Assembly: GCA_045862955.1 (NCBI GenBank)
Contig: BTVI01000033.1
Span: 1-36,699, forward strand
Source: Fimbriimonadales bacterium
GTDB taxonomy: Bacteria; Armatimonadota; Fimbriimonadia; Fimbriimonadales; JABRVX01
DNA: 36,699 nt
Direction: 5' to 3'
Positions 2,962 to 32,860 of the stretch are shown in pieces. A program made the position numbers and the translations under genes. Positions within the stretch are counted from its first letter, which is position 1. Each line of letters opens with the position of its first letter. Under the pieces are notes generated by a model. That model worked only from the letters and a program-made list of their open reading frames with translations, was not told the origin of the DNA and searched no databases.

Positions 2962-5475
2962 CTACGGTATCTTAACCAGCTTCACACAGGCTTCCTTGTG
3001 AAGCGCTTGTCCCGACAGCGGGTCCGCTTTTGTCGGTCGCAAGTAGGAGTCGGATGTACCACGACTCTTCGCATTTCTACCTAGCGCGGTATGTCCGAAT
3101 CCGTGTTGGAGCCCGACTACATCCGGGTGAATGCGCTCAGAGACACGGACCGTAGCCTTTGTCTTACCGTATGGGGAAACTACCATCACACTATCACCGG
3201 TCTTCAGCCCGTGTTTCGCCGCGGTAGTAGGATGCACTATCAGCGGGTTGGTCGGCTTGATTCCGAGCAGCAACTCGTTGTTCTGGGTGCGCGAGTGCGT
3301 GTGACTCGCTTCCTTCCAGTTGATCAGGTAGTACGGGAACTCCGCGGATGGTTGCCAGTCTCTGGGCTCGTAGGCAGGCAGCGGGTTCACACGCTTGCCG
3401 GTAGCATCCAGCTTCCCATCGAGGGTCTTCGAGAAGAACTCGACCTTGCCACTCGGAGTCCCGAAGCCTTTCACCGCACGACCACCTATGACGGTTCCGA
3501 TCCGCTTCCCACCGCTATCCTTGGGCTTATCGTATATCGCTGTCCCATCGCGGCTGCGGTCACCGTCGAACCAGGCGGTGGCGAGCTGAGCTTCGGTTAG
3601 TGGAGCGGCATACTTTTCATATGCGGTTCCCTTCGTCGAGACCCACACGGCGCCGGGAAGTTCCTTGAGCTGCGCCAGAGTGATCTTCGGAGCCCCTTGG
3701 AGCAACTCGTTGGACAGGTAGTCCTCATACCATGCTGTTAGGTTTTCGATTGGTTGTCCTGTCGTCGGCCCGATCGTGAAGAAGTCTCTGCCGTTGCCGT
3801 CACGCAGGCCAAGCCTACGCCCCAACGCGGCGACAGTTTCGTACTCGGCGAGCTGTCCGAACATGGGCTTGACCACGGGCTGACGGAGGCCCAAAACGGG
3901 CCAGGTGACCCAGTGGCTGTTCAGGTCATATCGCTCGAGATACACCGTTCCTGGCAACACGTAGTCTGCCAGCTGTGCGGTCTCACTGAGCATAGTATCA
4001 ACCACGACGAGTGTCTCCAGCTTCGCGAGGGCCTTGGCAACCACCTGACTCCCCGGTACCGCCATCATGGGGTTCTGGAAGATGCACATCAGCATCTTGG
4101 GCTGGTAAGGGCCCTTATCCTCTGCCAGGTTTTCGAACAGCTTGCAGTACACCCCCGAGCTGTGTCCCAAAGGGAAGCGATTCAGCTCGTCGAACCTCGG
4201 TTGAGACAGAGTCTTCTTGGCCGTCTCATCGGGTGTCACCTCTACATGCTTGTTCCCTTGTTTGTCGGGAATGATCATGGTGCCGGGGCGATCATAGCCG
4301 CCGATGAGCGCTGCCAGCGCCGCGATCGCGCGGCCTCCCTGGACTCCGTTGCTGTGCTGTCCCGGGCCGCTCCATACGTCTACACAAGCCGGCTTGATGG
4401 TTGCAACCTCGCGCGCCAGACGCTCGATCGTCTCGGCGGGGATCCCCGTGATTTCACTAGCCCAGGCTGGCGACTTGTCGCGTACGTATGCAGCGAACTT
4501 ATCGAAGCCTTCGGTCCATGTGGTCACGAACTGCTCATCGTACAGTCGCTCAGCGATGATGACATGACACATAGCCAAGGCCAAAGCACCGTCGGTGCCG
4601 GGGCGAATTGCCACCCACTCGTGCGCCTTAGCAGCAGTGTCGGACAGGTACGGGTCCACGACTACCAGCCGGGCACCACGCTCGATACCTCGAGTGAGGA
4701 TACGAGGCAGATACACCCACTTGATCGCGCTGGTAGGGTTCCAACCAAACAGCAGAATGTATTTGGACTGGATGAAGTCCGCGAGGGGCCTATCGTGGCC
4801 CATCACCGACTTAAACGATGCTTTACGAGCAACGTCGCACAGGTTAGAGTGCATTCCGTAGTTCGGCGTGCCATAGAGCTTACAGAAGTCCTGTTGGATA
4901 TGAGTGAAGGAGTGGTCCTCGCTGATCCATAGCAGCTTGTGTGCATCGCCGGCTTCGCGCAGCTGTTTCATCTTGGAGGCAATCTCCGACAGTGCCTGCT
5001 CCCAACTGATCTCTTGCCACTTCGGATCGGCACCTGGGAACTTATCGGGATTGCCACGCTTCAGCGGTACCTTCACGCGATCGGGGTCGTAGAGCTGCAA
5101 GATTCCGGCGTGTCCCTTTGCACATATCGAGCCACCCTCAGCGCACCCGTACTGCTCGGTATAGCCCTCGAAAAAGTCCGTGGAGATGTTCGAGTAGTTG
5201 TTAGGGTTCCAATGGTTGGGCTCGATCTTGGTGACGACTCCATCCACGACGTGAACCAGAATGCCGGACTGCCCGCCGCACATGTTGCAGCATGAAGGAA
5301 TCCACTCACCGGCCTCTCGACCCCACTGCCGCCGTCCCTCCGCATTTCGCGAGAGCGATCGCTTCTCCGGCACTGTAGGCGCTTGAGTGCGCCCAGCAAC
5401 TCCTCCCAGAGCGGCCGCAGCGGTTGCGGTTTTCAGGAACATCCTTCGGCCAATCTTCTCATCGTATACGTACAT
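2962..5475 (-). CDS. Tat-exported molybdopterin (DMSO reductase family) oxidoreductase catalytic subunit, PsrA/PhsA/ArrA-like
   Basis: GRRMFLK twin-arginine signal, N-terminal Fe-S motif CNMCGGQS...CAKG, YDPDR, HSNLC (Cys Mo ligand), RPGTD, ADYVLP, molydop-binding C-terminus. RBS GGGGAGGAG before ATG 5475. Confidence 0.9.
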   Translation of the reverse strand: MYVYDEKIGRRMFLKTATAAAALGGVAGRTQAPTVPEKRSLSRNAEGRRQWGREAGEWIPSCCNMCGGQSGILVHVVDGVVTKIEPNHWNPNNYSNISTDFFEGYTEQYGCAEGGSICAKGHAGILQLYDPDRVKVPLKRGNPDKFPGADPKWQEISWEQALSEIASKMKQLREAGDAHKLLWISEDHSFTHIQQDFCKLYGTPNYGMHSNLCDVARKASFKSVMGHDRPLADFIQSKYILLFGWNPTSAIKWVYLPRILTRGIERGARLVVVDPYLSDTAAKAHEWVAIRPGTDGALALAMCHVIIAERLYDEQFVTTWTEGFDKFAAYVRDKSPAWASEITGIPAETIERLAREVATIKPACVDVWSGPGQHSNGVQGGRAIAALAALIGGYDRPGTMIIPDKQGNKHVEVTPDETAKKTLSQPRFDELNRFPLGHSSGVYCKLFENLAEDKGPYQPKMLMCIFQNPMMAVPGSQVVAKALAKLETLVVVDTMLSETAQLADYVLPGTVYLERYDLNSHWVTWPVLGLRQPVVKPMFGQLAEYETVAALGRRLGLRDGNGRDFFTIGPTTGQPIENLTAWYEDYLSNELLQGAPKITLAQLKELPGAVWVSTKGTAYEKYAAPLTEAQLATAWFDGDRSRDGTAIYDKPKDSGGKRIGTVIGGRAVKGFGTPSGKVEFFSKTLDGKLDATGKRVNPLPAYEPRDWQPSAEFPYYLINWKEASHTHSRTQNNELLLGIKPTNPLIVHPTTAAKHGLKTGDSVMVVSPYGKTKATVRVSERIHPDVVGLQHGFGHTALGRNAKSRGTSDSYLRPTKADPLSGQALHKEACVKLVKIP

Positions 5476-5515
5476 CGCTGTCTCCTCCCCTATCAATATG
5501 CGGTTGCCCCTGCTG

Positions 5516-6394
5516 CTACAGCAGGTAGTAGACATTCGGCTCGAGGCCGAGCGACTCGTGGAGACGTACCCGCTTCCGCTTTGTCCTCAACAGGCGCGAC
5601 ACATCACTGTCCGGGTCGTTGAAGTCGCCGAAGTGAATGGCATGACCAGTACAGGTCTTAGCACAAGCGGGCCAACGCCCTGCCTTCTTGGAGTAGTTAC
5701 CGTTCTCGTCCTGGAGGTGCAAGCAGAACGTACACTTTCGAGCCTTGTAGATTGGGGGCTCGTCTTCCTTGCGTCTCCGATACTGCTCGTACTCGGGCGA
5801 CGGTACTCGGGCGAACGCGTCACTCGATTCGAAAACGACGTAGTTCTTGCCCTCATCGAATGACCTTGCCCCATATGGGCACGCCTCGACGCACGCCTGG
5901 CATCCGATGCAGAGATCGTAGTCAACTACGACAATGCCATCCTCCGCCCGCTTGTAGGTGGCTGCCTTCGGTTTTACGGGACATACGGGTAGACAGGCAG
6001 GCCTCTCGCAGTGAAAACACGGCTGCGTCAAGAAGACCGGCCGGTCGTTGCGCATCTTTCCTAGATATGTCTCAGTGACCTTGTTGTAGTCTACTCCCGG
6101 CGGCGTCTTGTTCTCCATCTTGCATGCCGCGACACAGGAGCGGCAGCCTACGCACCGCCGCACGTCTATCACCATGCCGTAGCGTTTCTTCGTACGAACA
6201 GGCGATGCAACGGCTGTTAGGTTTGAAGCCGCCTTCAGCGGCGAGGTTGCACCTAGTGCAACAGCGAGGGCTCCGGCACCCATCTTGACGAGTGTGCGAT
6301 TGAGTTCGCGGCGAGTCATGACGGTATCGTCCCGAGATCGGGTCCCGTTGGTTGCTCGACTCTCGGGAGTCGCAACGGATGAGCTCTTGTCCAT
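5516..6394 (-). CDS. 4Fe-4S dicluster electron-transfer subunit (PsrB/TtrB/NrfC-like)
   Basis: YGMVID-CVGCRSCVAAC, CFHCERPACLPVCP, CIGCQACVEACP, KCTFC...PACAKTC, PNVYYL; N-terminal TRREL plus a hydrophobic stretch (Tat-like); RBS AAGGAG. Confidence 0.92.
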   Translation of the reverse strand: MDKSSSVATPESRATNGTRSRDDTVMTRRELNRTLVKMGAGALAVALGATSPLKAASNLTAVASPVRTKKRYGMVIDVRRCVGCRSCVAACKMENKTPPGVDYNKVTETYLGKMRNDRPVFLTQPCFHCERPACLPVCPVKPKAATYKRAEDGIVVVDYDLCIGCQACVEACPYGARSFDEGKNYVVFESSDAFARVPSPEYEQYRRRKEDEPPIYKARKCTFCLHLQDENGNYSKKAGRWPACAKTCTGHAIHFGDFNDPDSDVSRLLRTKRKRVRLHESLGLEPNVYYLL

Positions 6395-17128: not shown

Positions 17129-18712
17129 TCAGAACCGCAGGCGTGTACCAGCGAACATCGCGCCCATCGGCTTCGGCGTGCTACCGTTGCTAAGGTTGCT
17201 CAATGGGTCCGAATCGTACAGCACGAAGTCTGCCAGCATCCCTGGTGCGATGTTGCCCAATTCGGCTTCTTGAAAGCCGACGTACGCAGAGCCTTCCGTG
17301 TAGCATCGCAGCGCTTCTGCAGGCGATAGTGCCTCTGAGAGGTCTAGTTGCGTCCCCTTCGCCGAACGCCTATGTACAGCCGCGAGCATTCCATCGGCAG
17401 GGTCACCCGGCACGATGGTCAGGTCCGAGCTAAAGCCGATTGGCACACCCGCATTCAGCAGCGATCGCATCGGCTTGACGCCCTTCGCGCGCTCTCCCAG
17501 CGCCTGCAGGTAATCGTCGGCAAAGCGTAGCAAGAACTCGGGTTGCATCGTCGCGCACACACCCGCTCCCACATACCGACGGATGAGATCGGGTGTCAGC
17601 AGCATGGAGTGCTCGATGCGATGCCGGTGATCGGCCCGAGGTTGGCGGGTCAGCGCCTTCTCGATAGCAGTTAGGCATGAAGCGATGGCACGATCCCCGA
17701 TAGCATGTACTATTACTTGCCTACCAGCTCGGTGGATGTCCCATACTGCTTGCTCTAGCTCCTCCTGTGGGTGGATCAACAGCCCGCTACCGCCCGACAG
17801 GAACTCGCCGGTTATCGCCGCGGTGCGCGTGCCGATGGCTCCATCGGCAAACAGTTTCACTCCGCCGATTGCCACGGTAGGATGGCCGCGAAGCGGATCC
17901 CACTCATCCCGAGTCGGCACCTCGCCGCGTGCCGCAAGGAAGTCATACAGCGGTGTCAGGCGAATCCGCAGAGACATGCCACGCTCGGCTGCCGCGCGGT
18001 ACGCCCACAGCTCCTCTTCCAAGCCGAAGCGAAACGAAGTCGCGTCCGTCGCCGCGGTGATACCCATCCGATTAAGGTGCCGCGCTGCCAGCACCAGATT
18101 GTCTGCAAGTTCCGTCTTGCCCATCTTGGGTTGCACCCGACGTACCAGCGCGACTGCATCTTCGAACAGCAGCCCGTTCAGCCTACCTTGCAGGTCTCGG
18201 CCGATCTTCCCGCCTGGTGGGTCCTCCGAATCCGCGCCGATACCTCCCGCACGAAGTGCTAGGCTGTTAGCGATCATGCCATGGCGGCTAGCGTGCCAGA
18301 TGATTGCCGGTCTATCAGGCACGGCGGCGTCCATCTCTGCCAGCGTGGGATATCGGTTCTCGACGACCGCTGATGCCAGGTAACCGTGCCCTGTCACCCA
18401 TCGCCCGCTCGGTAGGCAGCGGGCATGCTCCTTCATGGCATCCAGCACGGAAGGGATCGTCGGGCATCGCACGGCACTCACGTCCACGAAGCCGAAGCTC
18501 TCTGCCAGCATCGAGACGTGACAGTGGCAATCGTTGAACGCGGGGCACACGAATTCCCCATCGAGGTCCTCGAGCACGGCGCCAGAGCGCGGCAATCCCT
18601 CACCGACTGCACGGATGCGCCCTGCCTCGACCGCTATTTCGCCTCGACGAAAGCCCGAGCCGTCGAAATACTTCAGGTTGTGGAAGAGCGTAACGCCATG
18701 GTTGCTAGACAT
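17129..18712 (-). CDS. Amidohydrolase, YtcJ/NfdA-like (amidohydrolase_3)
   Basis: PAFNDCHCH, ANSLAL, DPPGG, VKLFADG, HAIGD, RIEH, MQP, SSD, GNIAPGMLADFV. Confidence 0.9.
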   Translation of the reverse strand: MSSNHGVTLFHNLKYFDGSGFRRGEIAVEAGRIRAVGEGLPRSGAVLEDLDGEFVCPAFNDCHCHVSMLAESFGFVDVSAVRCPTIPSVLDAMKEHARCLPSGRWVTGHGYLASAVVENRYPTLAEMDAAVPDRPAIIWHASRHGMIANSLALRAGGIGADSEDPPGGKIGRDLQGRLNGLLFEDAVALVRRVQPKMGKTELADNLVLAARHLNRMGITAATDATSFRFGLEEELWAYRAAAERGMSLRIRLTPLYDFLAARGEVPTRDEWDPLRGHPTVAIGGVKLFADGAIGTRTAAITGEFLSGGSGLLIHPQEELEQAVWDIHRAGRQVIVHAIGDRAIASCLTAIEKALTRQPRADHRHRIEHSMLLTPDLIRRYVGAGVCATMQPEFLLRFADDYLQALGERAKGVKPMRSLLNAGVPIGFSSDLTIVPGDPADGMLAAVHRRSAKGTQLDLSEALSPAEALRCYTEGSAYVGFQEAELGNIAPGMLADFVLYDSDPLSNLSNGSTPKPMGAMFAGTRLRF

Positions 18713-18764
18713 GGACCGATTGTAGCGCGGGGCGACTGCTCTTAGGTCGCCCCGCGCACGGATG

Positions 18765-19520
18765 TCAGTCGCAGGCCCAGTACCAGCTGCCCTCTGTCGG
18801 ATGCGGTGCACCACTCTCGTGCCCCGCGGCGTCCACGAACGTGGCGTCGAAGGAGGCCGGCGATGTTACGAACTTGGCGTGCCCGTCCGCAAAGATCAGG
18901 GTCCCGCCAGTCGCATGCCACTCGCGGAAGTAGTCCCAGGGCGGGTCACAGTCGTAGCCGTACTTCGCACAGCCGGGATCGTGCTTCCGTGAGAAGAACG
19001 ACATCATCTCATCGCGCATGATCCGCGTGTTCGCCGGATACTGAAAGCTCGAGTCCCGCGAGATGTAGGTGTAGTCGCGCAGCCGGTTGTTGGAGCTGCT
19101 GTACCCCGCAATGGTGGTGTACACGCACTTGGTGTAGCGGAAGCTGGTGCCGTAGGCGTCGAGGTAGCTCCTCGTACCCGGCACGTCCAGCTCTTGGTAG
19201 GGTCCGCCTTTGTCCTCGGCACACCCGAACACCCGTTTGTCTTTGACATAGGGGTAAAGCTGCACTTCTACCCCCTTGTGGTCGGGATGCCCCGCGGGCG
19301 GTTGGCTGTTGTAGGCGAAGAAAATGGGCCAGGTGCCGTTGTACGCATCTACGTACATGCGGACCGCCATGCCCACCTGCCTCGCGTTGGACACACACTG
19401 ACTTACACGCGCTTGGCGCCTAGCACTCGAAAACACCGGAAACAAGATCGCCGCGAGGATCGCGATGATGGCGATTACCACCAAGAGCTCTACAAGAGTG
19501 AACCCGCCGAGCCTCTTCAT
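18765..19520 (-). CDS. Prepilin-type N-terminal cleavage/methylation protein with H-X9-DG motif (DUF1559-like)
   Basis: [35 protein letters not shown]-terminal [17 protein letters not shown] overlap with the upstream gene. Confidence 0.92.
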
Positions 19521-20185
19521 CGGATTTCAGCCCCTTCGGGCTTTTCGGTAGAGACCTGCACAGCGGCACGCGTGAAACGATCTCTCCAAACCATTTGTCC
19601 AATCCAACAGCTAAGAGCCCCGGCCCACATCATTGCTATGACCGAGGTAACGAGTGTTCCCCACAGCTGAGATGTTCCAGCGAAAGCATAATAGTGAGTC
19701 ACGTAGATTCCCGTCAACCACTCCATTACCGCGGCGCCAACGCCGCCCCAAAGGAATGGCGCATAGTTCCAGTTGTCGTAACGGTATAGCCCGAGTGCGA
19801 GCTCCCCACCCACGCCCTGCAAGATGCCGACGAAGAACACCACATTGAACACCTCCATGGTTCGTCCCGACATCTCGATGCGCGTATACACCTCTCCACT
19901 CACGTTGATTGGATACTGTGCACCCACGAGATGGATTGTGCCTACTTCAACCAAGGCAGACAGCGCTTCTCCGAGGAGACAGGCTCCTGGCTTGCGGATG
20001 AGGGCGGCAGCGAGGAATCCACCCATCATCCACATTCCGTTGATAAGACTCGTAGGTGCCAGGTTCCAGCCGATTTCTAGTAGCCAGTTGTACAGATGGT
20101 CCCACGCGATGTAAACCAAGCCGAACGGGATGGCAACTGCAAGCAGAACTGCTACATCACGTCCGGTCCAGCGATATCGACTCAT
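19517..20185 (-). CDS. ECF transporter S component, YkoE-like (thiamine/HMP related)
   Basis: WTGRDV...FGLVY, GMWMMGG...IRKPGA..LGE..SALVE, GILQG.GGEL..LYRY..W match the YkoE-type pattern; about six TM helices; GGAGGAAGG RBS. Confidence 0.85.
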
Positions 20186-20197
20186 CGTTCCTTCCTC

Positions 20198-20899
20198 CTA
20201 GTAACAATCGAACCAGTGCTCCGAGGTCACCCAACCGCCGGGAGAAACGAGAAACGATGCGAACTTGGCGGGATTGGTGACGAACTCTGCATGACCGTCT
20301 GCGAACACACAGCTTCCTCCGAGTCGGTGCCAAACGGCGAAGTACTCTGGTGGAAAGCTGTAGGGTGGTTCGTCGAACCAGGGGAACTCCACGTCCCGTA
20401 TTACTCGCGTGCGTGCCGGCTCGACGAACGCAGAGTCCTTTACGATGCGAGTGAAGTCGTATACGTATTGGTTGATGAACGACTCCCCCGCGATGATAGT
20501 GAATGAGCAGCTGGTGAACTGATAGCTTGTACCGTAAGCCTCCATGTAGTTTTTGGCGCCTGGCACTTCCGTTTGCATGATCGGGGTGCCTCGGTCCATG
20601 GGGCACAGGAAGACGTGCTTACTCTTCGTGTACGGGTAGATCAGTACTTCGATCCCCTTGTGTCCTGGTTGCCAGCCAGGAGGGTCGGGGTCGTATGCGT
20701 AGAAGATCGGCCAAACCCCGGCGTGATCGTCGATGTACATGCGCAGCGCCAAGCCGATCTGCCTGCAGTTGGATAGGCACTGCTTGTCTTTGGCAGTCTC
20801 CCTGGCACGGGAAAACACCGGAAACAAGATCGCCGCGAGGATCGCGATGATCGCGATGACGACAAGTAGCTCGATTAGCGTGAACGCTCGCTTGCGCAC
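20198..20899 (-). CDS. Prepilin-type N-terminal cleavage/methylation protein with H-X9-DG motif (DUF1559-like)
   Basis: [51 protein letters not shown] start with GGGGG SD. Confidence 0.92.
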
Positions 20900-20974
20900 T
20901 ATTCGCCCCCTTACGTAGGTTCAGGGACGGACAGGGCGGTCGAGGGAAGAGGTTTGGTACTTTCGAAGAACCAT

Positions 20975-21098
20975 CTGCTTTCCTCCGCCGGTATTATCCG
21001 TCTCAGGTTCGAAGGGTTTGCCGTCGAACGGCATCTCAGCCACGGACCCATCGGGATGCGCATCGCATCGCCGCCGGAGCCGTTGGCTCCCCTAGCAG
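20975..21098 (-). promoter_or_regulatory. TPP riboswitch (thi-box)
   Basis: Minus strand: CTGCT-AGGGGAGCC...GGCTGAGA-TGCCGT-TCG-ACGGCA-AACCCTTCGAACCTGAGACGGATAATACCGGCGGAGGAA-AGCAG. P1, UGAGA, P3a and the P4/P5 loop AUAAU are all present. Confidence 0.92.
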
Positions 21099-21107
21099 AA
21101 CGCCTTC

Positions 21108-21135
21108 ATTGTACACCGAACGGTGGTCCCGTCAA
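21108..21135 (-). promoter_or_regulatory. Sigma70-type promoter of the TPP-riboswitch operon
   Basis: TTGACG (21130-21135), 16-bp spacer, TACAAT (21108-21113), just upstream of riboswitch P1. Confidence 0.7.
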
Positions 21136-21172
21136 GAGCAGGACCCCGGTCGCTTGCCGCGAATCGCGAGGC

Positions 21173-23104
21173 GTGCATGACCTAGACCTCGACCTCATTC
21201 CCTACACCAACATCGGCGCCAATTGGATCGGGCGCCATTCGCGCTTCGGCGTGTTCTGGCCGTTCCGTGAGCTTTCGGGCCTGCAGTCGGTCGGCGCCAT
21301 CATCGGCAACCGGCTGCACGTTCTGGGAGCGGGTGTGCTGCGCTGGCGCGTCTCTCACGAGGGCGTTGAGCACGCAGCGGGCTTCCCCCAGCGCTTCTAT
21401 TACCCGTGGGCCGTTGTGGAAGAATGCGACTTCGGTCCAGTGGGTGTCCGCGCCACGATGGCATTCGTCAGCGAAGATGCACTGCTCTGTCGCCTCGAGC
21501 TGAGGGGTTCGGGCCGAGCACGTGTGGAGTTCGAGAGCCCATGGGAACCGGGACGGCCCATTCCCCACTTACCCCGGCACCCGTGGCCACCCCACGTGTA
21601 CACCCCGGCCACCGAGCCCGTCGCCCAGCCAGTGGTAGAGCGTTCCGCAGGCGTGACGGAGTGCGCTTTCGACTACGAGGTGTACTTCTTCTACGGCCCG
21701 CCGGACTACCCTGGATACAAGGGGATGAAGAAGGGAGACCGAGCGCAGAGCTTCTGGCTGGCCGACACAGAGGGCTGGGAAGGAGACCTTTCGCCGGATG
21801 CACCGGTGGTGCTGAACCGCTGCGTGAGCTTCGGTTTTCGAGAGCAGGAGGCAGCCGGGAACCTTCACGAGGCCAAGCAACAGGCTGCGCGTTGGGATTT
21901 CGAAGCTGAGCGAGAGCGCACGCAGACCCTCTATCGGGCTGTCTCGGAACTGCCCGACTCGCTGGCCGACGACCCCGCGATGGCGCGGCTTCGCAGACAT
22001 GCTATCGTCGGGCTGCTGGGGAGCGTAACGCGCGGACGCGGCGGCTTTTGGGGCAACAAGCGCATCACGCTGGCCGCTCGCTATCAGATCGTGGGCCAGT
22101 GGTACTGGGATACCGCCGTCGCCATGCTGGGGCTTCGCGAGTTCGCTCCGGACATTGCGAGGGAGTCCTGTCTCGCTCTGCTAGAGAACCAGACCGAGTA
22201 CGGCGCCGGTCCACTGACCTTGACCGACACGACGCGGCACGGCGAAGGGCAGAGCCCGCTTCTGGCCTGGGCAACCTGGATGCTGCACCGTACTGCGCCC
22301 GACCGCGGCTTCCTCGAAATGGTCTACCCGATGCTGCGGCGCAACGTTGAATATTGGTTCGGGCGCCGGCTGTCGAAGAACGGCCTGCCGATGTGGTCGA
22401 ACGCCGCCCAGTCGGCAGACAACGATGCGCGGTTCGCGCCTTGTGGCACCACCGACCTAACCGGGAACGTGGACGTGCATTCTGTGGAGTCCGTAGACCT
22501 CAGTGCCTTTCTGGTTGCCAAGATGCGATTCCTCGGCAACATCGCCGAAGCTCTGGGCAGGGCGGACGAAGCGAGTGAATGGCGACGCAGGGCAGAGGAG
22601 CACTCCGCAAAGATGGTAGAACGGTTCTACTTCGCGGACGAAGCCGTTTTCTGGGACACGCACGAAGATACCGGCGAGCCGTTCACCAAGGCACTCACTC
22701 CGTTCGCCTTCTTGCCGCTCTGGGCCGGGACGCCGCTCCCGGAGGACGAGAAGCGGCGAATCATCGAGGAGCATATGCTGAACCCGCGCGAGTTCTTCGG
22801 CGACTACCCCTTTCCCAGCCTCGCCTACAACCATCCCGAGTATAACCCCCACAGCTATTGGCGGGGCCGCATCTGGCCGCACGTGGTGTACTGGATGATC
22901 GAGATCCTCTGGGATCACGGGTACCGAACCGAGGCCGAGCGGACGGCCCGTCGAATGCTGCAGATATTCCGAACCACACCGTATTTGCACGAGTGCTATC
23001 CGAGCGACGGGTACGACCCGCACATGGGTCTGCCCGAGTACAACTGGTCCTGCGCCATCTGCCTGGAGCTGCTGCTGGAGCGATACAAAGAAGGGCGCTT
23101 CTAG
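21173..23104 (+). CDS. GH63/MGH1-like (alpha/alpha)6 glycoside hydrolase
   Basis: QWYWDTA, QSPLLAW, SADNDARF, VDL, YWRGRIWP, ECY, YNWS motifs. Start placed at GTG 21173 because the longer ORF overlaps the riboswitch. Confidence 0.82.
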   Translation: MHDLDLDLIPYTNIGANWIGRHSRFGVFWPFRELSGLQSVGAIIGNRLHVLGAGVLRWRVSHEGVEHAAGFPQRFYYPWAVVEECDFGPVGVRATMAFVSEDALLCRLELRGSGRARVEFESPWEPGRPIPHLPRHPWPPHVYTPATEPVAQPVVERSAGVTECAFDYEVYFFYGPPDYPGYKGMKKGDRAQSFWLADTEGWEGDLSPDAPVVLNRCVSFGFREQEAAGNLHEAKQQAARWDFEAERERTQTLYRAVSELPDSLADDPAMARLRRHAIVGLLGSVTRGRGGFWGNKRITLAARYQIVGQWYWDTAVAMLGLREFAPDIARESCLALLENQTEYGAGPLTLTDTTRHGEGQSPLLAWATWMLHRTAPDRGFLEMVYPMLRRNVEYWFGRRLSKNGLPMWSNAAQSADNDARFAPCGTTDLTGNVDVHSVESVDLSAFLVAKMRFLGNIAEALGRADEASEWRRRAEEHSAKMVERFYFADEAVFWDTHEDTGEPFTKALTPFAFLPLWAGTPLPEDEKRRIIEEHMLNPREFFGDYPFPSLAYNHPEYNPHSYWRGRIWPHVVYWMIEILWDHGYRTEAERTARRMLQIFRTTPYLHECYPSDGYDPHMGLPEYNWSCAICLELLLERYKEGRF

Positions 23105-32776: not shown

Positions 32777-32860
32777 TGGTGCCCAGGGCGGGAGTCGAAC
32801 CCGCATGAGTTGCCTCAAGGGATTTTAAGTCCCCCGTGTCTACCGTTTCACCACCTGGGC
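32777..32860 (-). tRNA. tRNA-Leu (UAA)
   Basis: GCCCAGG...GGGGA-CTTAAAA-TCCCT, long variable arm TGAG-GCAA-CTCA, GGTTCGACTCC, ACCA end; TATACT -10 upstream. Confidence 0.97.

Follow-up and report, generated by a model that had tools for sequence, protein, structure and literature searches.

We analyzed a 36,699-nucleotide stretch of DNA from a Fimbriimonadales bacterium of the phylum Armatimonadota (assembly GCA_045862955.1, contig BTVI01000033.1), hereafter the window. It carries on its minus strand an operon led by a thiamine pyrophosphate (TPP) riboswitch, in which two genes for pilin-like proteins flank a gene for the S component of an energy-coupling factor (ECF) transporter. An earlier note on this DNA had proposed that the operon is a candidate pilin-assisted vitamin uptake system. 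We found that its pilins belong to a clade which is a strongly conserved thiamine module from an orphan pilin family.

The operon begins with pilin gene 1 (20198–20899), which encodes a 233-amino acid (aa) prepilin of the N-methyl-Phe H-X9-DG type. After a 12-bp gap comes the gene for a 222-aa YkoE-like S component (19517–20185; PF09819), which overlaps, through the letters ATGA, with pilin gene 2 (18765–19520), encoding a second prepilin of 251 aa. This order and spacing are as the earlier note had given them, and the same operon is carried by a sister species (G001).

The leader upstream of gene 1 also contains the elements that had been claimed for it. A sigma70-type promoter-like site that matches the consensus (TTGACG, a 16-nt spacer and TACAAT; 21135–21108, minus strand) is weak when taken alone, with two sites in the scan versus 1.4 by chance, and the sister species keeps both hexamers and their spacing. 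A TPP riboswitch aptamer with a long P3 extension (20963–21103, minus strand) matched RF00059 over its full length with 68.9 bits (cut-off 54.3, E 1e-11) and encloses the segment 20975–21098 originally assigned to it. It is the single TPP riboswitch match in a genome that is 97.6% complete. The aptamer of G001 scored 67.7 bits; there the P3 insertion (39–40 nt; 21047–21085, minus strand) has kept its length and changed its sequence.

The predicted expression platform is a pyrimidine tract on the same strand (20923–20951) that can pair with the 3' part of the aptamer (ON) or, through positions 20938–20923, with the Shine-Dalgarno (SD) sequence of gene 1 (AAGGGGGCG; 20904–20912, minus strand) and the start codon (OFF). 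In constrained folding, opening the SD cost 7.3 kcal/mol in the free leader and 16.1 kcal/mol with helix P1 forced, and the mean unpaired probability of the SD was 0.48 and 0.25, respectively. With P1 forced, positions 20938–20923 paired with the SD and the GUG start, which in computation includes the pairing proposed earlier between CGTCCCT (20929–20923) and GGGGGCG (20910–20904). The anti-SD letters are the same in G001, where the cost of opening the SD rose from 11.7 to 16.3 kcal/mol on forcing P1. This pairing and the raised cost therefore lead us to predict that TPP controls the operon at the level of translation, through sequestration of the SD. Public sequencing runs were uninformative on transcription: 7 of 13 contained part of the stretch, and four gave scattered contigs of 150–330 nt, from flanking genes too.

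A thiamine pilin clade behind TPP riboswitches

The genome encodes about 50 prepilin paralogs (51 open reading frames with the motif; 55 matches), and no TPP switch was found before any of the other ~49 prepilin genes. A search with the head of pilin 2 found relatives in 161 of 401 genomes of the phylum, mostly in one copy, and the thiamine pilins form a supported clade (98/93 in IQ-TREE). From the remaining 160 matches we examined 65 (the 29 best-scoring and 36 chosen across families) together with G001, 66 genomes in all. At each of their 70 loci, a same-strand TPP aptamer precedes the pilin motif by 49–228 nt (median 105). By Rfam, 46 of 47 aptamers were above the cut-off; the other 19 and the single miss were recognized (20/20) by a purpose-built model made from 22 of the clade-linked aptamers. 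The 66 genomes span more than ten families, in which the pilin is the first gene under the switch and often the only one, as in many Fimbriimonadales-type loci, and its neighbours vary. In 40 loci viewed widely, some on contigs that stop early, thiN lies downstream in 20 and an SSS-family permease gene in 16. These downstream clusters were identified by scan, as thiamine pyrophosphokinase in 11 of 11 and as SSS permease in 5 of 5 of those scanned.

The pilin gene also tracks the loss of thiC. Among 80 genomes, 31 lack thiC, of which 22 carry the thiamine clade, six carry a second clade of TPP-led pilins and three carry neither, whereas among the 49 with thiC the thiamine clade is present in one (G081) and the second clade in none. 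A TPP-led pilin is thus found in 28 of 31 thiC-lacking genomes versus 1 of 49 with thiC. In thiC-positive genomes, the 13 riboswitches inspected lead thi4, thiG or a thi operon. Full-length thiN was found in 36 of 37 pilin genomes versus none of 10 thiC-positive controls, and a thiE match in 7 of 37 versus 10 of 10. With the aptamer upstream in all 66 genomes, thiN and SSS genes as frequent neighbours and a distribution that follows thiC loss, the thiamine link drawn in the earlier note was borne out. G081 is alone among the 80 in having thiC as well as the pilin; its thiE match (G081:C1:1958539-1959085) runs across two frames, through either gene disruption or an error in the sequence.

We searched the genome of the window for thiC, thiE, thiB, a TonB barrel and EcfT and found none of them; ThiB was likewise not found in any of the five genomes tested. 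Elsewhere in this genome (C23), thiN and an SSS permease gene adjoin without a switch. The genome also encodes three secretins and several PilB/PilT-type ATPases. Because those five genes were not found and thiN is present, the gene content points to intact thiamine as what is taken up. Delivery of a precursor such as hydroxymethylpyrimidine (HMP), which had also been suggested, is unlikely here, since thiE was not found. In G004, a genome without thiC, thiE or the pilin, the TPP switch (L107; G004:C33:2273-2380, plus strand) leads a gene for a membrane-like protein of 227 aa that matched nothing in Pfam, possibly a further thiamine uptake gene.

The six genomes with the second pilin clade behind TPP switches (G074, G087, G100, G110, G112 and G124; loci L108–L113) all lack thiC, and an SSS permease follows in three of them and thiN in one. 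The two TPP-led clades are separate; joining them was weakly rejected by the approximately unbiased test (p-AU 0.038), on long branches. Cobalamin riboswitches lead pilins as well. At the 30 best such loci, one per genome (L159–L188), an H-X9-DG pilin is the first gene in 15 and the second in two, compared to a background of prepilin genes of ~2% of genes; in four others the riboswitch leads a TonB receptor. The cobalamin-led pilins are of more than one sequence type. Since cobalamin riboswitches lead other H-X9-DG pilins in half of these loci, different vitamins have different pilin clades, positioned where the receptor usually stands. In the genome of the window, a weak cobalamin riboswitch match (26.3 bits, cut-off 31.5) is followed by a 315-aa open reading frame and a pilin resembling the B12 type (G000:C15:22750-25489, plus strand), possibly the B12 counterpart of the operon. 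Flavin mononucleotide (FMN) riboswitches, sought for comparison with a third vitamin, were found in none of 70 phylum genomes under strict filters.

Pilins, S component and operon boundaries

Both pilins scored above the cut-offs of TIGR02532 and PF07963, and both have a literal H-X9-DG pattern near the C terminus. PF07596 matched with scores of 23.4 and 28.1 (cut-off 23.3) at positions 2–32 only, some 30 profile positions. The N-methyl-Phe/H-X9-DG identity assigned earlier is supported by TIGR02532 and the literal pattern; for TIGR04294, gene 1 scored 14.5, below the cut-off of 19, and gene 2 was unlisted at E 0.1. The class III prepilin signal is present, with a basic leader, Gly or Ala before Phe, Glu+5 and a hydrophobic helix (e.g., RKRA-FTLIE). 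The cleavage site, Phe+1 and Glu+5 are retained throughout the clade; in all 73 rows the residue at -1 is A or G, which was a condition of the motif search. Segments that the earlier note had called unusual are marks of the clade when worded more loosely: among 116 clade sequences, YG[TS]S occurs in 112, H[KL]G[VITD]E in 103 and PIF-x-AY in 99, each in none of 35 paralogs. The exact WPIF(F/Y)AY occurs in only seven of the 116.

The model of pilin 2 (predicted local distance difference test, pLDDT, 96) has a helix at residues 4–54. Its 15 best structural matches are all type IV pilins or pseudopilins and extend over the whole chain, so that the modeled head has a pilin fold into which large segments are inserted; in the best match, 119 residues aligned over 1–223 with a Z of 5.2, a modest score, and a root-mean-square deviation of 3.8. 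Foldseek returned nothing at E 0.001 for the pilin model, PDB matches by sequence were confined to the N-terminal helix, and the structural comparisons matched no enzyme fold. In the ESM Atlas, all matching clusters were without a name. Clade-specific conserved residues include I61, F62, A64, Y65, H76, E80, S121, R161, R164, E166 and F171, and in the head Y65, H76, E80, S121, R164 and W196 are invariant. YkoE and ThiT bind thiamine through aromatic and acidic residues, as described in the accessible text of PMC5037267, and by analogy the conserved head residues may form a thiamine pocket.

The two pilins share 52% identity and are not equivalent, a correction to the earlier reading. Pilin 2 is of the common type of the clade, whereas pilin 1 differs at 10 clade-conserved positions and is of a type linked to the S component, in which R123 and E166 (gene 2 numbering) are both lost, to V or I. 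This S-linked signature was found in 10 of 10 pilins examined upstream of S components versus 0 of 115 other clade rows. FastTree first grouped the S-linked pilins, a grouping that we do not trust: IQ-TREE with LG+G4 scatters them (p-AU 0.20), and a mixture model groups five of seven (89/86; p-AU 0.29). Tandem clade pilins without an S component occur in G084 and G257 (L057, L058), with the signature in neither copy.

The YkoE-like S component claimed for the middle gene was confirmed by a PF09819 match (E 3.6e-19), by Bacillus subtilis YkoE (5EDL) as its sole solved relative (E 9e-11) and by a model with the six-helix S fold (pLDDT 73.5), for which 5EDL is also the top Foldseek hit (E 4e-5). 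A beta-hairpin insertion with four invariant residues is predicted at about residues 87–111, between helices 3 and 4, a position which by S-component topology is on the outer side. W52, E80 and Q123 align with W49, E77 and Q95 of YkoE, its contacts to the pyrimidine ring (5EDL; accessible text of PMC5037267). In the subfamily, W52 and E80 are invariant in 12 of 12 rows and position 123 is Q or E.

These 12 rows come from six genomes (G000, G001, G200, G320, G390 and G296) and six metagenome contigs. PF09819 matches in G070, G119, G225, G233, G314 and G335 were left out; they scored 39–46 bits or nothing on the subfamily profile, versus 273–370 for members, and have no pilin or aptamer in their loci. 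A clade pilin lies upstream in the operon in all 12 subfamily loci, which represent about five lineages with several near copies, and a TPP aptamer is present in 11, the twelfth contig stopping within the pilin. The pilin-S-pilin arrangement is also found in a different lineage, at L192 (switch, pilin, S, pilin, thiN, SSS). The gene neighbourhood, the conservation of which had been named beforehand as a test, is thus conserved. Replacement of the SSS permease by the S component was ruled out for this genome, as the thiN-SSS pair is present at C23:32380-34409 and both occur together in L192.

As in the genome of the window, no EcfT (PF02361) was found in G200, G320 and G002. No same-operon ATP-binding cassette (ABC) ATPase motif was found in the 12 loci either, whereas it was found in two of two canonical control loci. 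The S component is therefore not part of a group I ECF transporter, because the T and A components are missing. Complex prediction for pilin 1 with the S component gave a score of 0.00 twice and a mark of 0.32, which is no evidence either way. Several operons (L144:6588-7400, L145, L146 and L193–L197) encode a tandem pair of distinct PF09819 S components, of which one has the hairpin insertion and the other lacks it.

The operon closes with a 12-bp GC-rich hairpin without a U tract (18725–18757, minus strand), which folds in both species, between which one G-C pair has changed to A-U on both sides. The sequence TACAAT (18724–18719, minus strand) follows, 7 nt before the ATG of a PF07969 amidohydrolase gene (17129–18712) in both species. 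The amidohydrolase likely has its own promoter, and the short distance suggests a leaderless transcript. The hairpin and the TACAAT rule it out as a member of the operon, and it was not seen downstream in the 40 wide loci or the other S loci. Other genes of the window include one for an MGH1-like glycoside hydrolase (20954–23104), which diverges from the operon, a molybdopterin oxidoreductase with a ferredoxin subunit (2962–6394), a GH35 beta-galactosidase (615–2870) and two tRNAs (99–170 and 32780–32860).

A proposed uptake route, its alternatives and known systems

We propose, as a tentative reading with a nearly even chance of being correct, that the pilins form part of a retractable type IV filament, where their heads capture intact thiamine and hand it to the SSS permease or the S component, after which ThiN phosphorylates it. 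At low TPP, the 3' part of the aptamer would pair with the pyrimidine tract, leaving the SD more open, and when TPP is bound the freed anti-SD would cover the SD and the GUG. The prepilins would be cleaved between the A or G and the Phe, and one of the general PilB/PilT/secretin machines, which this genome encodes and whose use here we infer, would load them. The six invariant head residues (Y65, H76, E80, S121, R164 and W196) likely make up the thiamine site. Retraction through the secretin would bring the vitamin across the outer membrane of a cell in which no TonB receptor was found. The common-type pilin 2 likely serves the SSS permease encoded elsewhere next to thiN, and the S-linked pilin 1 likely serves the YkoE-like S component, which would work free of an ECF module, perhaps via its extra outer hairpin. 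ThiN would then make TPP, and the switch would shut.

Several findings weigh against this proposal. Three thiC-lacking genomes (G004, G073 and G129) are without such a pilin, G073 having a weak match (E 7e-11) that was finally counted as no pilin. In addition, 9 of 60 further pilin genomes do carry thiC, and therefore the mutual exclusion of pilin and thiC is not strict (thiC in 10 of 83 overall, versus 48 of 51 genomes without either pilin); we give no p-value for it, since kin genomes are not independent draws. The earlier suggestion that the pilins replace a TonB-dependent receptor or periplasmic binding protein fits the genome of the window, with no TonB barrel or ThiB found; TonB receptors were found in all four other genomes tested (four of five with this one). 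The operons contain no pilus assembly genes, the pilin fold match is a modest one, and the folds of ThiB/TbpA, ThiY and YkoF are absent among the listed structural and sequence matches of the pilin head, where an unlisted family is possible. In the sequence alignment the S component has changed the thiazole contacts of YkoE (Y46 to N49 and D131 to G159), with an invariant E155 one turn from G159. As a partner of the pilin it is constant in its own 12 loci and optional in the clade: PF09819 is rare, in 11 of 401 phylum genomes versus 161 of 401 for the pilin, and thiN-SSS is present elsewhere in this genome as well. EcfT genes occur elsewhere in G001 and G296, so the S component is not generally solitary. 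The trees neither establish nor reject a single origin for the S-linked pilins. Finally, the switch predicted for G001 is weaker, with the SD closed in both states.

The same regulon and gene-content evidence would also be expected if the pilins bound thiamine as monomers anchored in the inner membrane, standing in for ThiB or YkoF near the permease, with passive entry through the outer membrane. DUF1559 has been called a solute-binding family (PMC2754498, in the part accessible to us), no ThiB was found in five of five genomes, the operons are without an assembly gene, and the S-linked signature would fit a partner contacted directly in that membrane. Yet the residues for filament assembly (the cleavage site, Phe+1 and Glu+5) are retained throughout, and a search of this genome yielded no TonB receptor. 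Such pilins also stand behind riboswitches for B12, which exceeds the size for ordinary porins; this favours an active route. We thus consider anchored binding rather unlikely as the full account, and regard it as probable that the pilins bind thiamine in one of these two ways, in a filament or anchored. An unlikely role, more so than anchored binding, is an indirect one under thiamine starvation, in which the pilins would not be carriers: they could be adhesins that attach the cell to particles or partners releasing thiamine, or serve in the envelope as an enzyme or adaptor setting thiamine free from a bound or phosphorylated form. This would suit the many Fimbriimonadales-type loci with the pilin alone behind the switch, invariant polar residues (H76, E80, R164 and D207) that could be catalytic, and the Akkermansiaceae pilin-like proteins proposed, in the accessible text of PMC13174399, to attach cells for glycan uptake. 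However, no enzyme fold was matched, and a signature tied to one permease type, together with separate B1 and B12 clades, fits ligand-specific hand-over better.

A different ligand for one branch of the operon is compatible with filament-borne uptake and would change only that branch: pilin 1 and the S component could take another vitamer (thiazole-modified thiamine, thiamine monophosphate or TPP) than pilin 2 and the SSS permease. We find this doubtful. The S component does retain the three pyrimidine contacts and not the two thiazole contacts of YkoE, pilin 1 departs at 10 clade-conserved positions, and the S module has been added to thiN-SSS, not exchanged for it; these changes may nonetheless stem from contact with the partner rather than the ligand, and free HMP or thiazole would be unusable here since thiE was not found. 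With about 50 paralogs per genome and a gene order shared among kin, pilins might also have come to stand behind a riboswitch by chance or descent, with no role in the supply of thiamine. This is very improbable, as in all 66 genomes, which span more than ten families, the pilin is the first gene behind the switch and often stands alone there, with changing neighbours, a second clade took the same post, and the gene is mostly absent where thiC is present.

DUF1559/H-X9-DG proteins are among the largest families without an assigned function in Planctomycetes and Armatimonadota. For one clade, the locus singles out a ligand and candidate residues, by which the old solute-binding label of the family becomes testable. 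The S-linked type of pilin offers a rare handle on contact between a pilin and a permease. If a pilus does carry vitamins over the outer membrane, it would be a new import route besides porins and TonB receptors. More broadly, and with less confidence than in the filament proposal itself, we suggest that H-X9-DG/DUF1559 pilins may be interchangeable ligand-catching subunits of retractable type IV filaments, which would bring small nutrients over the outer membrane instead of TonB receptors, the locus being the thiamine module, with pilin types matched to an SSS permease or, via an added outer hairpin, to a module-free S component. We found no description of TPP- or cobalamin-riboswitch-led prepilins in the literature, which we covered mostly outside subscription papers and supplements, where regulon tables could list such genes. 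The S subfamily with an extra hairpin and an upstream pilin, and the two-residue pilin signature, are new.

The logic of the operon, with a switch, a capture gene, a permease and a kinase, is already known, whereas the novelty would lie in the pilin step and depends on binding by the pilins. In the accessible text of PMC5613172, the OMthi-pnuT-tnr3 genes of Bacteroides thetaiotaomicron likewise combine a TPP riboswitch, an envelope capture gene, an inner-membrane permease and a thiamine pyrophosphokinase, mostly in one operon and split in some genomes; there the capture protein OMthi is TonB-dependent and the permease is PnuT, whereas here a pilin-like envelope protein is combined with an SSS permease or a YkoE-like S component. 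An SSS permease behind a TPP riboswitch is also known from SAR11 (ThiV/SSSP; PMC11452348, as far as accessible). The likeness is at the level of the SSS family, as the SAR11 system takes up HMP, whereas the genomes studied here mostly lack thiE and have thiN, in keeping with intact thiamine. Solitary BtuM (accessible text of PMC6072759) shares the S-component fold, a genome without EcfT and an adjoining envelope capture gene. BtuM stands with BtuB and carries B12, whereas the S component studied here adjoins a pilin, is predicted to bind thiamine and would transport without a module. The group I ECF transporter YkoFEDC of B. subtilis (5EDL; PMC5037267, in the part accessible) resembles our operon in THI-box control, in the W/E/Q pyrimidine contacts and in an extra thiamine gene in front, ykoF. 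Unlike YkoFEDC, the operon has no adjoining ykoC or ykoD, no EcfT was found in its genome, the thiazole contacts are changed, and an extra outer hairpin, flanking pilins and a diderm-type host with secretins are present.

Type IV-like pili are known to act in DNA uptake, as in competence pili. Such a pilus has also been linked to nutrient acquisition, in the MUL2 system for glycan uptake in Akkermansiaceae (PMC13174399, as accessible). Both take up polymers and have assembly genes, whereas a small vitamin is the probable cargo here and the subunit genes are scattered. The closest relatives by family are the DUF1559/H-X9-DG proteins of Planctomycetes (accessible parts of PMC2754498 and PMC10632474), likewise a large paralog family, with 68 members in Planctopirus (PMC10632474), a prepilin N terminus and a solute-binding label. 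In contrast to these, regulation and gene content connect one clade here with a named ligand, and the Pfam match covers about 30 positions.

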